DNA from: a virus
Taxonomy: Duplodnaviria > Caudoviricetes
IMG/VR virus record: IMGVR_UViG_3300031867_000005
Location: 96,001-160,000 of that record
Reading direction: 5' to 3' (one strand)
DNA: 64,000 nucleotides
Both the position numbers and the translations under genes were made by a program. Of the stretch, positions 3,570 through 39,424 are shown one piece after another (within the stretch, counting starts at the first letter, position 1; the number at the start of each line of letters is the position of its first letter). The notes under the pieces are model-generated. The model saw nothing but the letters and a program-made list of their open reading frames with translations, was not told the origin of the DNA and did not search any database.

Positions 3570-5858
3570 ATGGAGCTTACTAACAAAAAAATACTTTTTG
3601 AGAGAAAAGACGCTGGAGTTAATAGTAATATTCATCCTTATCTTGAAATAAATGCAAAAGAACATAAGGAAGAAATAAAAGAAGGCATTGAAATAAAAAG
3701 TGATAATATTTCTATTGTAGCTTCAACTAGAATAGGAGATTATGATTTAGATATAATTCACCCTCGTATTCCAGATTTAAACTGTTATGCTTTTAATTCT
3801 GAAAAGGTAGGAGATGGGAAAATTAATGCAGAAGATGCGTCTTTAATTCTTCAAATCGCAAGCACTGTAGCAAAAGATTGTCGAGGACATAACGTTGGTT
3901 TTTTAGAAATTAAAGATAAAAATATGAATGTTGTTTTTGAAAGGAAAATGGTTGATTTAGATAGACTTGAAGAAGATTGGGGAATTGATTTTACAAAAAG
4001 TCCATATGCTGAATATACTAAAATAATTGAACCTATTTTTAATAGAAAATAGACTTGGAGAGCAGATGCCAGTTGGAATAGTTTTGAAAATATTTTTCTT
4101 CCAATTACAATTCGTGATGCAATATTGGTAAATAATTATGCTGCTTATAGAGGAGCAGGTGAGCCATTAGTAATAAATTTTGAAGATACAAGCGAAAAAG
4201 ATTGGGGGAAATTTTTGAAATTAGTTGATGAAAGGGAGCTTTCTTTGAAAGCAGAAGTTATTCCCTTTTCTTATTTCTTTCCGGCTGTAATAGATATGTC
4301 CAAAATAACAAAAGAGGATTATGATATAATTAAAATAGCTTATGAATAGAAATAGAATGGAATCGCATTTGAAGATTGCATATTAGCTCAATATAAAGTT
4401 AATCCAAAATGGGAAGAACATTATAACAATGGAAATATATTAAAAACAAAAATCTATAATTTTGATTTAATAAAACATTTTCTAGGTCTTTGTGAAATGA
4501 AAACATTGATGAAACCGCAAGGATATTATACTGATGAAGATGGAAAACCTTATGGCACTCCTTAGGGATGGAAGGACTATATAGAAAGAGAATTTGGCAC
4601 ACTTTCTGCAATAAATATTGAAAATATAGAATTTATTTTTACTGATAAGGATAACTATTCAGAAAAATCAATTAGTCCTTTTGGCGAAAACAATCAAATA
4701 TCTTCAGTCATTAGTGATACATCTTATAATGTTAAAGGAGTTGGAGGAATAGAAATTATTTCAGAACTTGGTGGTAATGTCTAGAATACAGCTGAAAAGA
4801 ATGGAGAAATTAAGTTGTCTTTAAGTCAACTTCATGATTATTCTGAAGATTTAGGAGAATTGTTATCTCCTATAAATTATCAATTAGATATATCAGAAGA
4901 ATCAGGTTTACAAAGTCAATATTATCTTTATCCAGAAAGTCCCAGCTATTATTTCAGAGGGAAATATAATTATGAGTATGATGAAAATACCAATACTTTA
5001 ATATCATAGAATATAGAAATAAAAAACGATGATAAGGCTATCATTACAGTTAATATGCCTTCATTGCAATCTCAAATTACTAATGAAGTAGAAGTTATAG
5101 ACCCTTTGCCAAAATTAAGAAGTTTTTCATTATATGTAAAGAATAATAATAATGAATGGGTTACGCCTGGTGGAATCAATTAGCGACAAACTACTGGTAC
5201 AGATAACGCAGGAATACCTATTATGAAGCAAAATGATATTATTGGGAGACCTCTTTATCTTAATTCTGGTAATGAAAAAGGAATTATTTCTTATCATATA
5301 GACAGGTTAGGACGTTTTTCAAATGAACTAATTGAGTCAGGAAGATAGTATTATCATACAAATGAAACTCCTTTTAATCCTACCACAGAAGAATATTTAA
5401 AAATTGAATTAGCTTTTAATGGCATTCCAAATGAAGATTATAAATTGCCACAAGTTGATAATTATACTTCTAATAATTCAGAAATTTATTGGTCTTGTTA
5501 GTTAAATAATTTAAAATTAAATAATACCATTGAAATTATTGAAGCCGGACTTGAGAATGATATTGTTCCAAAAGAAGTCAGTCCAAAAGGATTTTATACG
5601 ACAACAGGAAGAGAAATCGTATTTTATTGTATTGTAAAAATAAAAGGAAATATTGATAATTCTCCTATAACACAAGAAGGTTCAATGTCTATAACAGATT
5701 ATTATGATTATTCATACAGAGACAATTTGTATTCATAGATTGCCTATCCTTTGGTATTTACTTTTAGACATGATACAGAAGAATCTCCTAATGGAGAAAT
5801 AATAAATTTTGGAGAAAAAATTTATATTGATTTATTACTATAGAAAAAGGAGGTGTGA
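3570..5858 (+). CDS. 762-aa putative virion protein with dockerin-like EF-hand motifs (multiple TAG read as Gln)
   Basis: ORFs 3570, 4125 and 4815 share one frame; I read it through TAG-only stops to TGA 5858; GDGKINAEDASLIL and a second TIRDAILVNNYAA half-repeat. Confidence 0.75.
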
Positions 5859-5864
5859 TTAGTA

Positions 5865-7064
5865 GTGTCATTAACTCCAGATAAGGTTGAAAAAATTAAT
5901 GGTGTTACTGTTAAATAGTATTTTTTGACTAAACATAATATAAATAAAATTTCAATGCCATCAATTGCTATGACAAAACCAATTGGGATAACCATTCATA
6001 ATATGGAATCTATTAATACAACTTCTAATATTTCTCCAGCAGAACAATATACTAATGCAACTATAAATGACAGTATGGGGACTATTAGAACACATTTTTA
6101 TATAGACGAACTTGGAGCGTGGCAAAATCTTCCTTTAAATTTAAGTGGCTGGCATGCAGCAGATGGAAATGGCGATGGTAATAAATTAACTATTTCTTTT
6201 GAAATAATAGGAAATTCACTTAAAGCAGAAATTAATGCAATTAAACTAGCAGCATATTTTTTAAAAAAGTATGGAAGAACAGTTGAAAATGGTCTTTTTA
6301 CTCATACTTATTGGTTCAATATAAAAGATGGGAAAAAAGGAGACATAGATTATTTGAATACTTTATATAATTCAAACAAAATTTGTCCAGCTTATATTAT
6401 TCCTCATTGGTCTACTTTCAAAGAAAAAGTAAAAGAAGAATTTGAAAAATTGCACGCTACAATTAACCAGAAAGATACTATATCTTCTTTACTTAATGAA
6501 AATCTTTATAGAATAAGAAAAAAATGGAATGAGCCAGAAACTGAGATAGGAGCTTATCCTTCTCTTGATATTGCAAAAAAAGAATTTAAAAAAGGCTATT
6601 TTATTTATGATTCCAAGGGAGTATAGATTTATCCAAATAAAATTTTAGAAAAAGAAAAGATTGATGTTTTTTATCGAGTATTTTCAAAAGACAGTTGGAC
6701 TCCAGAAATAAAAAATTTAGAAAATCATGCTGGTATCGAAAATAAAATAATGAGTGCTATTTCAATTAAGACTCTAAAAGGACAAATTCGTTATAGAGTG
6801 CATTAGTTCAATTCAAATTGGATGAATTGGATTTATGATTACAATATAAGTAATGTAATTACTGGATGTGCCGGCCTACCAGGAATTCCAATAGATGGAA
6901 TCTAGATTCAATATATTGGAGAAGATGGTTATGATGTAAGATACAGGGGCGCCGCACGAGGTCAAGATTATTATCAATGGGTATACGGAAAAGATTAGAA
7001 TAAGTTTGCCGGATATGCTGGGAAATATCTTGATAGACTTTAGATTGAAATTGTAAAGGAGTGA
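5865..7064 (+). CDS. N-acetylmuramoyl-L-alanine amidase (Amidase_2) with C-terminal cell-wall-binding region (TAG read as Gln)
   Basis: GTG start; ITIHN, HFYIDE, GWHAADG, HTYW, KICP motifs; frame continues through TAGs (IDGI*I, DRL*IEIV) to TGA 7064. Confidence 0.85.
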
Positions 7065-7069
7065 TTTAA

Positions 7070-7597
7070 GTGGGAAATTTGAGTGCTCATTTTAATGATT
7101 ATGAATTTGCTTGTAAATGTGGATGTGGAAGAAAAACAATTTCTAAGGATTTGATTAGTGGTCTTGAGAAAATTTTTTCTATAATGAATGCAAAAGCTAT
7201 TATTATAACTTCTGGTTTTCGCTGTCCATCCTATTCTGTTAAAATTGGTGGTTATAGTGATGATGCACATACTATTGGCATTGCTGCTGATATTAAGGTT
7301 AAGAAATAGGATGGAAGTTATTATACTCCAGAACAAGTTGCTGAGGCAGCAGAAAGAGCTGGTTTTGGTGGAATTGGTTTAATGAATACTGCTTGTCATG
7401 TAGATAGGAGAGATTTGGGCGGTTATAAAAACTCCCATTGGTTTGGAGATGAGAGAACTGGGAATAACAGGATTAGCACATTTCAGAAAGGAACTAACTT
7501 TGATAGTTACTCTATCAGCTCTTCTCAAACTTAGTCTTTTTCTCATGAGGTAAAAGTAACAATTGATGGTAAAGAAGTTTATAAAGGCATTATTTGA
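7070..7597 (+). CDS. Peptidase M15 (endolysin-type) (TAG read as Gln)
   Basis: HFNDYEFACKCGC, ITSGFRC, HTIGIAADI; the last Zn-ligand motif CHVD lies after the TAG at 7307; ends TGA 7597. Confidence 0.85.
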
Positions 7598-7713
7598 ATA
7601 GGTAATAATGGGGAAAATATTAAATATTTTCCCTTTTATTTTTACTTTTTGGTAGACTAAAATCTTGACTTTCTCAATGTTTTGAGATATAATAATGTTA
7701 AGGAGGGGTGAAA

Positions 7714-8037
7714 ATGTTAGAGCTTTTAGGTGCGTCTTCTAGTTCAGTGTTGGGTGGACTTGGGGCTTTGGCCGCAATTGTTAGTATAATTGTTGAAATA
7801 TCTAAAGCTTTTATTCCGAAAAAAATTCCCACTGCTTTAGTGACTTTAATTGTTTCTTTAGTGGTCTGTATCGCTTTTGTTCTTATATTTTTTGAAATTA
7901 CGGTAAAAGCTTTAGTGTTAGGATTTTTCATGAGTTTTATTGTTGCGTATACAAGTATGAATGGTTTTGATACGTTGACAAGTATATGGAAAAGATTTTA
8001 GATTATTGAAAAAGAAGGTGGTGAGAAAGATGAGTGA
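7714..8037 (+). CDS. Holin-like membrane protein (TAG near the C-terminus)
   Basis: Three hydrophobic segments, adjacent to lysins; TAG 7999 read through to TGA 8037. Confidence 0.6.
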
Positions 8038-38944: not shown

Positions 38945-39065
38945 AAGATTCGTCAGCAATTCATATTTTCGTTATACATACCATATGATATATAGTTTAA
39001 CGGTAGAACATCTCATTGTAAATGAGAAGACTAAAGGTTCGACTCCTTCAGAAACGAATCTTGAA
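38945..39065 (+). ncRNA. Y-RNA-like element 1 enclosing the D, anticodon (GTA) and T arms of a Tyr-like tRNA
   Basis: AAGATTCGT-CAGCAAT...ACGAATCTT-GAA closing stem replaces the acceptor stem. Confidence 0.65.
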
Positions 39066-39068
39066 TTT

Positions 39069-39143
39069 CGCCCCATCGTCTATGGTTAGTTAGGACATCA
39101 CGCTTTCAATGTGAATAGACCAGAGCATCACTGGTTGGGGTGA
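39069..39143 (+). tRNA. tRNA-Glu(TTC)
   Basis: CGCCCCA/TGGGGTG; TCACG-CTTTCAA-TGTGA; atypical T-loop AGCATCA. Confidence 0.75.
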
Positions 39144-39147
39144 CTTA

Positions 39148-39269
39148 AAGATACATTCAGCAATTTTGTTTTAGAAGAAAAATTTTCCTTGTGTGCTGGT
39201 TAAAGTCTAGCCCGAACTTGTGCCGGTAGTTTAATTGGTAGAACAAGGATTCAAGAAAATGTATCTTGA
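39148..39269 (+). ncRNA. Y-RNA-like element 2 (circularly permuted tRNA mimic)
   Basis: AAGATACATT-CAGCAAT...AATGTATCTT-GA; T-arm GCTGG-TTAAAGT-CTAGC precedes D-arm GTTT-AATTGGTA-GAAC. Confidence 0.7.
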
Positions 39270-39292
39270 TTTAAATGTTAGTTAAAATAAAG

Positions 39293-39424
39293 GCCGCTTT
39301 GATGGAATAGGCAGACATAGGGGACTTACATGGAAAGCAGTCTTAATTAGCGGGGCAGCACCACTATCCATGACCAAAATCCCCTGAGAGAAATCTCGTG
39401 CGAGTTCAAGTCTCGCAAGCGGCA
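39293..39424 (+). tRNA. Split tRNA-Leu(TAA) with a 48-nt mini-tRNA insert (39329-39376)
   Basis: GGGGA-CTTA[insert]AAA-TCCCC; long variable arm; insert CATGGA...TCCATG-ACCA. Confidence 0.85.

Follow-up and report, generated by a model that had tools for sequence, protein, structure and literature searches.

Why should a phage interrupt the genes for the very transfer RNAs (tRNAs) that read its late genes? The question is raised by a 64,000-nucleotide stretch of DNA (hereafter the window), bases 96001-160000 of one phage record (IMGVR_UViG_3300031867_000005, Caudoviricetes; 178,685 bp, 31% G+C), in which the genes for tRNA-Ile(UAU), an amber-suppressor tRNA(CUA) and tRNA-Leu(UAA) carry short inserts in their anticodon loops. 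An original prediction, made by eye from the sequence, held that TAG, ATA and TTA mark the late genes and that splicing of these three tRNAs switches on a whole late codon set. Here we show that the inserts are tRNA-shaped. The best explanation, which we hold to be somewhat probable, is that the phage has a codon dialect of its own for late genes and tRNAs to serve it, three of them interrupted, with TAG acting as an on/off signal and ATA and TTA as graded preferences. Comparison of relatives indicates that such inserts concentrate in the tRNAs serving the late dialect, sole suppressor copies among them, an association that is real and partly new.

Three sole-copy tRNA genes carry tRNA-shaped inserts

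The genome was scanned for inserts that open with the first base of a 6-7-bp acceptor-like stem, close with NCCA and leave a 7-nt anticodon loop when removed, with the third condition that ARAGORN calls the spliced tRNA with the same anticodon. Across all 178,685 bp exactly three genes match, those for Ile-UAU, suppressor-CUA and Leu-UAA, so that the first part of the prediction, that only the decoders of TAG, ATA and TTA are interrupted, stands for this genome. The scan made no call on 1.22 Mb of reversed sequence. Every tRNA gene of the genome lies within the window; the three interrupted ones, together with an intact leucine tRNA used for comparison, are as follows.

Window 36817..36958, plus strand: tRNA-Ile(UAU) gene with a 64-nt insert at 36853-36916; loop halves CTTA and TAA, joined as CTTATAA; ARAGORN calls the spliced sequence Ile(tat)
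Window 37505..37631, plus strand: amber-suppressor tRNA(CUA) gene with a 51-nt insert at 37540-37590; loop halves CTC and TAAC, joined as CTCTAAC
Window 39293..39425, plus strand: tRNA-Leu(UAA) gene with a long variable arm and a 48-nt insert at 39329-39376; loop halves CTTA and AAA, joined as CTTAAAA
Window 39714..39796, plus strand: intact tRNA-Leu(UAG), loop CTTAGAA, called by ARAGORN

The inserts share one architecture, in which the stem opens the insert, a hairpin lies directly against its 3' strand and one base plus CCA follows; all three thus have the acceptor-like stem, T-arm-like hairpin, NCCA end and restored 7-nt loop by which we define a tRNA-shaped insert. The Ile-UAU insert folds into a 7-bp stem and three small hairpins ending in ACCA. 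The leucine gene is read as Leu(UAA) in preference to ARAGORN's own split, which gives CAA, because of the NCCA end rule and the alignment to intact Leu(taa) tRNAs. The spliced products are colinear with intact tRNAs of the same anticodon in related phages, the suppressor having been aligned with 11 intact CUA tRNAs, and in one orthologous suppressor pair the gene is interrupted in relative G003 and intact in relative G010, both with the loop CTCTAAA. A search of IMG/VR for an insert-free version of this suppressor's own junction gave no match.

No intact copy of the Ile-UAU, CUA or Leu-UAA tRNA is present anywhere in the genome. The Ile-UAU gene is the phage's sole ATA decoder with a UAU anticodon and, there being no intact second CUA copy, the interrupted suppressor is the only TAG decoder for at least 429 in-frame TAGs. 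Within window 36678..37475, plus strand, early-type promoter sites lie just upstream of the Gln-UUG/Ile-UAU pair (window 36678, genome 132678) and of the suppressor tRNA (window 37440, genome 133440). Genes of this kind are easily overlooked: plain ARAGORN and Rfam detected only the uninterrupted tRNAs, and ARAGORN with introns allowed found two of the three, labelled Ser-CGA and Leu-CAA, and missed Ile-UAU. That standard tRNA finders miss or mislabel interrupted genes helps to explain recoded phages reported without a detectable suppressor tRNA.

At 48, 51 and 64 nt the inserts are not group I introns, whose ribozyme core takes some 200 nt or more, and Rfam at its gathering threshold gave only tRNA matches in the window. 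They sit at loop positions 34/35 or 35/36, unlike the canonical 37/38 of archaeal and eukaryal protein-spliced introns; the bulge-helix-bulge motif that the endonuclease of such introns cuts was not modelled, and no search was made for a splicing endonuclease.

In the same region, tRNA-like pieces that we did not count as tRNAs lie between the tRNA genes (window 38945-39292 and 41700-41800), next to a gene for a DUF2828 (TROVE-like) protein; they include an acceptor-less Tyr-GUA-like Rfam match at 38993-49.

TAG recoding is confined to the late blocks

Gene calls in this work are based on open reading frames (ORFs), and genes are called late by position, function and TAG content. On that basis the genome falls into four parts. 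The first (genome 1-55 kb, plus strand) encodes a portal, virion proteins and a sigma factor, and the long ORFs of this virion block exist only with TAG as a sense codon. A replication block with few TAGs (genome 55-94 kb, minus strand) encodes a PolC-type polymerase, primase, topoisomerase II, RecJ, NrdD and ligase. It is followed by a TAG-recoded arm (genome 99.5-113.4 kb, that is, window 3570-17378) and by an array of short TAG-free genes (genome 113-178 kb), in which 50 of the 56 plus-strand matches to a TTGAC[AT]-N16-18-TA[TA]AAT promoter pattern fall. Reading through TAG brings the plus-strand ORF coverage of genome 1-55 kb and 100-113 kb to 0.8-1.0, against 0.1-0.4 otherwise. There are 43 genes with three or more TAGs, which together hold the 429 in-frame TAGs; recoding is limited to the late blocks, the early genes being TAG-free and in the standard code. 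When TAG positions were aligned to the non-recoded relative G009, they faced Gln most often (103 of the 297 positions without a gap, followed by Glu with 37 and Lys with 27), and code 15, in which TAG encodes Gln, is therefore appropriate. The two regions compared below are made up as follows.

Window 3570..17378, plus strand: late TAG-recoded arm of seven main ORFs, open only with TAG as an amino acid
Window 3570-5858, plus strand: late-arm ORF without a family match
Window 5865-7064, plus strand: amidase-type endolysin (lysis family match)
Window 7070-7597, plus strand: peptidase-type endolysin (lysis family match)
Window 8006-14119, plus strand: late-arm ORF of 2037 aa with 39 TAGs, without a family match
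Window 14061-15551, 15613-16455 and 16452-17378, plus strand: late-arm ORFs without family matches
Window 55000..64000, plus strand: early arrays, made up of short TAG-free genes preceded by consensus sigma-70-like promoters (ORFs and promoter pattern)

The arm had been described as structural. It is late and TAG-recoded, but as it holds only two cell-wall hydrolases and large family-less ORFs, and the virion block lies elsewhere, it is not shown to be structural.

Two genes of the replication block, for the RecJ-like exonuclease and NrdD (L004:10873-12627 (-) and L005:12323-13978 (-)), contain one and two in-frame TAGs within end-to-end family matches, from which it follows that some middle genes too need TAG read-through.

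TAG behaves as an on/off mark, ATA and TTA follow a gradient

Codon shares in the late arm (window 3570-17378) were compared with those in the early arrays (window 55-64 kb) by Fisher tests.

ATA of Ile: late 169/452 (0.374), early 15/89 (0.169), p 1e-4
TTA of Leu: late 192/363 (0.529), early 29/78 (0.372), p 0.013
TAG of Gln: late 81/155 (0.523), early 0/28, p 2e-8
ATT: late 0.575, early 0.73, p 0.006
TTG: late 0.13, early 0.22, p 0.05
CAA: late 0.43, early 0.79, p 8e-4
CAG: late 0.045, early 0.21, p 0.006

The contrast drawn by eye is thus borne out, both in the richness of the late arm in ATA, TTA and TAG and in the early preference for ATT, TTG, CAA and CAG. Taken over the whole genome, from the early blocks (E2, then E1) through replication and virion to the lysis arm, the three codons behave as follows.

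ATA share of Ile: E2 0.16, E1 0.22, replication 0.27, virion 0.30, lysis arm 0.37
TTA share of Leu: E2 0.35, E1 0.40, replication 0.48, virion 0.52, lysis arm 0.53
TAG per 1000 codons: E2 1, E1 1, replication 5, virion 19, lysis arm 18

Genome-wide, then, ATA and TTA form a gradient and are not a mark. The late dialect as a whole uses more TTA, ATA and AAA and less CTT, ATT/ATC, AAG and CAG than the early genes, and about half of its Gln codons are TAG.

The simplest account of such a gradient is compositional, namely that late genes are more AT-rich, that ATA and TTA follow and that there is no tRNA-linked codon signal. G+C at the third position (GC3) of four-fold sites is indeed 0.16-0.17 in late and 0.21-0.22 in early genes, and TTT, AAT, AAA, GAA and GAT also rise. 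We therefore fitted quasi-binomial models with GC3 and A at the third position (A3) of the other codons as control. Equality of ATA and TTA between gene classes under such control had been named beforehand as the outcome that would speak against the prediction. ATA remained unequal: its odds ratio (OR) was 1.75 when late genes were set against early ones (p = 3e-4) and 1.37-1.44 when they were set against the rest of the genes (p = 0.004-0.01), the Mantel-Haenszel OR was 1.37 and the late share was higher in five of five GC3 strata. TTA, with classes set by location, lost its significance in this genome at ORs of 1.10-1.18 (p = 0.10-0.15 for 1.15-1.18). Against early genes alone TTA retained an OR of 1.34 (p = 0.015), and between TAG-recoded and TAG-free genes of this genome it reached a GC3-adjusted z of 2.5; in that comparison ATA ranks first and TTA third among 56 codons. 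AAT, GTT, AAA and GAT shift as much as TTA under GC3 control.

A purely compositional origin is nevertheless very improbable. Relative to the share of A at four-fold sites, ATA climbs from 0.38-0.54 in early to 0.76-0.82 in late genes, and the A-ending codons of the four-fold families (GTA, ACA, CCA, GCA) show no late rise. Across ten similarly AT-rich genomes, described below, TTA ranks third or higher after GC3 adjustment in nine, and ATA enrichment is specific to some lineages. Gene by gene, the ATA and TAG shares correlate after GC3 control (partial rho 0.39, p = 6e-5). An effect of the TA dinucleotide, which TAG, TTA and ATA all contain, was considered as the cause and ruled out, as GTA and CTA show no rise. 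We also looked for a 5' ramp of TAG, ATA or TTA in late genes and found no clustering; if anything, the first fifth of genes has fewer TAGs.

The shift is shared by other codons for which the phage encodes tRNAs. GC3-adjusted late-versus-early ORs are 1.62 for ATA, 1.60 for CAA, 1.35 for GAA, 1.27 for TTA and 1.21 for AAA, and late enrichment is absent for the phage-tRNA codons CCA, GGA and CTA. GAA, and CAA when counted against CAG alone, both with intact phage tRNAs, thus shift like TTA, and AAA nearly so.

As a guide to possible hosts we took four genomes (Clostridia, Oscillospiraceae or Ruminococcus) with the closest homologues of an endolysin. In these TTA makes up 3-23% of Leu and ATA 5-54% of Ile codons; three of the four prefer CTT, as the phage early genes do, and ATA use differs among the four. 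The endolysin gene itself (window 2603-3373; L184-L195) is TAG-free, and its closest genomic homologues, at 36-53% identity, are in Oscillospiraceae, Ruminococcus and other Clostridia. The genomes were assembled from ruminant and other animal guts. These homologues give a weak hint as to host; one of them is terminal on a 171-kb contig, possibly a phage in its own right.

In relatives the inserts favour tRNAs of the late dialect

The survey covered contigs around homologues of the neighbouring TROVE-like DUF2828 protein (thousands) and 80 IMG/VR loci from an alignment search. Whole-genome tests used IMG/VR records only, from which eleven whole or partial relatives were fetched; the clade comprises gut or rumen phages of 120-190 kb with a PolC-type polymerase. 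No relatives were found in the GenBank phage collection, by protein or by DNA, nor in IMG/VR when queried with a single protein. The survey yielded 18 distinct interrupted tRNA sequences in seven tRNA species and 511 intact sequences.

Leu-UAA: 6 interrupted, 26 intact
Pro-UGG: 3 interrupted, 28 intact
Lys-UUU: 3 interrupted, 27 intact
Ile-UAU: 2 interrupted, 17 intact
CUA suppressor: 2 interrupted, 16 intact
Gln-UUG: 1 interrupted, 28 intact
Asn-GUU: 1 interrupted, 19 intact
Never interrupted (intact): CAU 35, UCC 23, CAA 22, UAG 22, UUC 21

The insert type is therefore not confined to the decoders of TAG, ATA and TTA, yet it is clearly biased towards them: 10 of 69 sequences of the Leu-UAA, Ile-UAU and CUA trio are interrupted, as against 8 of 460 in all other species. 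An interrupted gene is always the sole copy of its tRNA species in its genome. Insert lengths run from 45 to 77 nt. In L015:3268-3390, which ARAGORN calls Thr(TGT), the NCCA rule gives the loop CTTTTAA and hence Lys(UUU).

A general preference of the inserts for loops starting with CTTA, or for tRNAs with U at position 34 (U34), was rejected as an explanation. The Leu(UAG) gene of this phage had been noted as intact despite its CTTA loop start, and none of the 22 distinct Leu-UAG sequences is interrupted; the same holds for 21 Glu-UUC, 18 Thr-UGU, 19 Ser-UGA, 16 Arg-UCU and 23 Gly-UCC sequences, and Pro-UGG, with the loop TTTGGGA, is hit.

Ten genomes, this one included, have enough TAG-recoded and TAG-free genes for the codon test. 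The top GC3-adjusted codons of recoded genes are TTA (geometric OR 1.76, significant in nine genomes), CAA, AAA (1.64, in eight) and ATA (1.34, in four), and the most depleted are CTT, CAG and AAG. CAA was discarded as a late-enriched codon: its apparent gain arises because TAG takes the place of CAG, and among all Gln codons CAA becomes less frequent. The ATA OR is at least 1.5 in five of the ten genomes (this one, G003, G005, G008 and G010), among them both genomes with a UAU tRNA (this one and G005). G003 and G010, with ORs of 2.2-2.4 in recoded genes, have no UAU tRNA that we could find and a single CAU tRNA each, possibly an ATA decoder of the Ile2 type. CCA is enriched where Pro-UGG is interrupted (OR 1.52 in G004 and 2.15 in G001) and in one of five genomes where it is intact. 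Gene length as a covariate left the codon effects in place and is thus not a confounder.

Against this background the sense tRNAs that are interrupted in five genomes all, nine of nine, read codons with a GC3-adjusted z of 2.5-5.2, so that the predicted match between interrupted tRNAs and late-gene codons extends to relatives. The mean z is 0.09 for intact tRNAs (n=131) and 1.14 for intact U34 tRNAs (n=67). In within-genome permutations, comparison with all tRNAs gave p below 1e-5 (7e-5 under a conservative count of CAA) and comparison with the U34 pool gave 2e-4 (1.2e-3 under that count); these association tests are post hoc, having been designed after the data were seen. At the level of tRNA species, the fraction interrupted rises with mean late bias (rho 0.53, p = 0.009).

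It is possible, though we doubt it, that the inserts derive from tRNAs as selfish or mobile elements, play no part in regulation and persist only where imprecise loss would be lethal, that is, in the indispensable tRNAs of the late dialect. Their presence differs between close relatives, as in the suppressors of G003 and G010, and locus L008, whose neighbouring protein is 88% identical, carries an intact, non-orthologous Leu-UAA at the same place; in L009 the suppressor and Leu-UAA are intact and Pro-UGG is interrupted. The site within the loop ranges from 32/33 to 36/37 and can differ among genes of a single tRNA species, and two inserts are complete, nested 76-77-nt cloverleaf tRNAs with CCA ends (L059:14943-15095 and L071:6109-6259, inside Asn-GUU and Lys-UUU anticodon loops). 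Against such an origin, very common phage tRNAs (CAU, UCC, UAG and UUC in the list above) are never interrupted, and neither a mobility gene nor a target duplication was identified. The acceptor-like stems of the inserts stay paired while their sequences differ, which shows selection for processing; this, however, does not separate selfish persistence from a regulated function.

Several observations weigh against the reading that we prefer. Besides the weakness of TTA under GC3 control, the commonness of a tRNA species predicts its interruption about as well as late bias does (rho 0.59 versus 0.53), and the fit of Pro-UGG and Asn-GUU to the dialect is limited to some genomes. Because a T-arm motif is common to the inserts of one tRNA species, which perhaps have few origins, the independent events number nearer ten than eighteen and the sample is in effect small. 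Homologues of the candidate repair proteins described below are present in relatives without inserts, so that the kit may serve classical tRNA repair only. Finally, G005 (the IMG/VR record behind L069, 123,981 bp), in which Ile-UAU is interrupted, has the kinase-HD protein and no tblastn match at 1e-5 to either RNA ligase of the window; it may use either a different ligase or one supplied by the host.

A probable switch for TAG, at most a graded boost for ATA and TTA

The strongest form of the prediction is a purpose-built timer, in which TAG, ATA and TTA are poorly read until splicing of the three tRNAs switches on the whole late gene set. Several features would suit it. Each of the three broken genes is the only one of its kind and follows an early-type promoter, TAG is absent from the genes for healing and sealing, the codons of interrupted tRNAs are late-enriched in all genomes tested, and ATA and TAG shares are correlated. 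Yet ATA (14-18 per 1000 codons) and TTA (28-32) are frequent in early genes, and both are common also in replication genes and in the repair genes themselves, those for the polynucleotide kinase and ligase that would have to act first, so host tRNAs must already read both codons. For late translation, then, matured Ile-UAU and Leu-UAA can bring no more than a boost, and a caution applies to sense codons generally, for which an insert can only have the effect of a graded boost.

Relatives point the same way. The z of TTA is 2.5, 5.2 and 4.4 in genomes with an interrupted Leu-UAA and 4.7, 4.7, 4.7, 4.1 and 0.3 in those with an intact one; late bias is thus equal for interrupted and intact versions of the same tRNA species, and the dialect is independent of the insert. 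Relatives with an intact Leu-UAA (G003, G004, G007, G010) or an intact suppressor (G010 versus G003) show the same late TTA and TAG usage. In this genome AAA and GAA, whose tRNAs are intact, shift to a similar degree, and the TAG and TTA shares are uncorrelated within late genes (rho 0.10).

A further case is the obvious gate. A sigma-factor-like gene (phrog_5767) outside the window (G000:C1:2186-3382; L001:2186-3382), preceded by a consensus sigma-70-type promoter at genome 2121, is the most TAG-dense of the genome: 24 of its 398 codons are TAG, which makes up 80% of its Gln codons. Eight recoded relatives have a homologue, each with 5-13 in-frame TAGs. In its shares of ATA (0.14) and TTA (0.44) the gene does not exceed the early genes, which makes TAG a credible gate and ATA and TTA not. 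From its sequence the gene looks like a suppressor-gated switch for late transcription. Judged from these codon distributions, TAG is the only on/off signal, and ATA and TTA are graded preferences. The proposal that splicing switches on a whole late codon set, with the three codons alike as marks, is accordingly not supported; that inserts also occur in Pro, Lys, Gln and Asn tRNAs speaks against it as well, and we consider the purpose-built timer unlikely.

A candidate route for insert removal

It is the sole-copy status of the interrupted genes that suggests that the inserts are cut out and the tRNA halves rejoined. From the combination of acceptor stem, T-arm and NCCA we predict excision that depends on a protein or RNase P, followed by ligation, and not self-splicing. 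On an acceptor/T-arm minihelix with a 3' NCCA, bacterial RNase P cleaves at the 5' end. In the route that we consider likely, RNase P would cut at the 5' side of the insert's acceptor-like stem, freeing a 5' half with a 3'-OH, and a second cut after the NCCA would free the 3' half. The ends could then be healed and sealed by proteins encoded in the window.

Window 31770..32669, plus strand: TAG-free kinase (AAA_33) and HD phosphohydrolase protein, candidate RNA end-healing enzyme (Pfam AAA_33 1.7e-14, HD 1.8e-6)
Window 46094..47146, plus strand: TAG-free Rnl2-family RNA ligase (Pfam RNA_ligase 1.5e-22)
Window 47772..48893, plus strand: TAG-free T4 Rnl1-family RNA ligase (Pfam RNA_lig_T4_1 2.3e-13)

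The kinase-HD protein would heal the ends and the Rnl1 or Rnl2 ligase would seal the anticodon loop, joining the halves; Rnl1 of the T4 type seals nicks in anticodon loops (review PMC3400036). Kinase-HD homologues occur in 10 of 11 relatives checked, with or without inserts.

The inserts may thus be a conserved, processing-dependent control on the tRNAs that read the late dialect (TAG, TTA, ATA, AAA and, in some lineages, CCA), acting through RNase P-type cutting and phage ligases to set when late genes are translated efficiently. We offer this tentatively and think it rather unlikely; if true, it would be a translational timer made by tRNA mimicry instead of a ribozyme.

Another conceivable role is counter-defence. 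Host anticodon nucleases typically attack tRNAs with A/U-rich anticodons, and interrupted precursors of such tRNAs would form a nuclease-proof reserve, matured by the phage repair enzymes, with the link to late codons being indirect. The interrupted species include Lys-UUU, Gln-UUG and Asn-GUU, classes known as targets of anticodon nucleases, the T4-like kinase and ligase kit is found across the clade regardless of inserts, and the neighbourhood includes a BrxL-like protein and further conflict genes. On the other hand, neither the suppressor nor Leu-UAA, Ile-UAU or Pro-UGG belongs to the classical targets, and once matured the tRNAs would be cleavable anyway. We regard such a counter-defence as decidedly unlikely.

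Other genes of the window

The BrxL-like protein is a Lon-type ATPase (window 51593-53014; Pfam BrxL_ATPase 1e-103, BrxL_N); BrxL is a usual component of bacterial BREX (bacteriophage exclusion) defence systems. A TAG-free UvrD-type helicase gene (window 17459-19648) contains an intein with a LAGLIDADG endonuclease domain (Pfam Intein_splicing, LAGLIDADG_3).

Comparison with known systems

Late recoding and phage tRNAs matched to late codons were already known, and the tRNA introns of recoded phages had been no more than enigmatic; here the three are tied together. In our reading of the full-text literature, no paper other than the Lak megaphage report treats tRNA-like introns of this kind, and the link from insert to late dialect was not found described.

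In gut phages, TAG is recoded to Gln (code 15) in late or lytic genes with the help of a phage suppressor tRNA (bioRxiv 10.1101/2021.08.26.457843). The present phage resembles these in having TAGs confined to virion and lysis genes, early genes in the standard code and a phage CUA tRNA, and the idea that the suppressor delays late translation is the same. It differs in that the sole suppressor gene is interrupted by a tRNA-shaped insert, as are Ile-UAU and Leu-UAA, and in that sense codons co-vary with TAG; the text of that study mentions introns only in protein-coding genes.

The tRNAs of phage T4 include decoders of AUA and UUA. In Shigella phage Sf14, phage tRNAs are matched to late-gene codon usage (PMC12482277). 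As in Sf14 and T4, the tRNAs of the present phage read A-ending codons that are commoner in late or structural genes than in early genes and host; unlike in those phages, whose tRNAs are uninterrupted, the decoders of the most late-biased codons here and in relatives carry inserts.

Group I introns also interrupt anticodon loops, classically in the tRNA-Leu(UAA) of cyanobacteria and plastids. With these the present inserts share the anticodon-loop site, Leu-UAA among the preferred hosts and the failure of standard tRNA finders to detect the genes, but at 45-77 nt they are too short for a group I core, and Rfam finds no intron family in the window.

The kinase/phosphatase-type protein and the Rnl1 and Rnl2 ligases recall the Pnkp/Rnl1 repair of T4, in which sealing of the anticodon loop is the very step that rejoining would need (PMC3400036). 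T4 repairs nuclease-damaged host tRNA-Lys, whereas here the proposed task is to complete the removal of a gene-encoded insert.

The closest parallel is with the Lak megaphages, whose tRNA introns were termed "enigmatic", one of them being predicted to encode a tRNA (PMC6784885). Both are TAG-recoded gut phages with inserts in the anticodon region of tRNAs, inserts that may be tRNA-like. The Lak report notes a one-base offset from the predicted boundary for its own Thr(TGT) intron (PMC6784885), which could be a mislabelling similar to that of L015. That report proposes no mechanism and no link to codon usage; the present phages are a different clade (120-190 kb, PolC-type), in which seven tRNA species are affected and the insert often sits in the sole suppressor copy. 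The question of the enigmatic introns thus becomes testable, as a choice between the timing of translation and passengers in indispensable genes.

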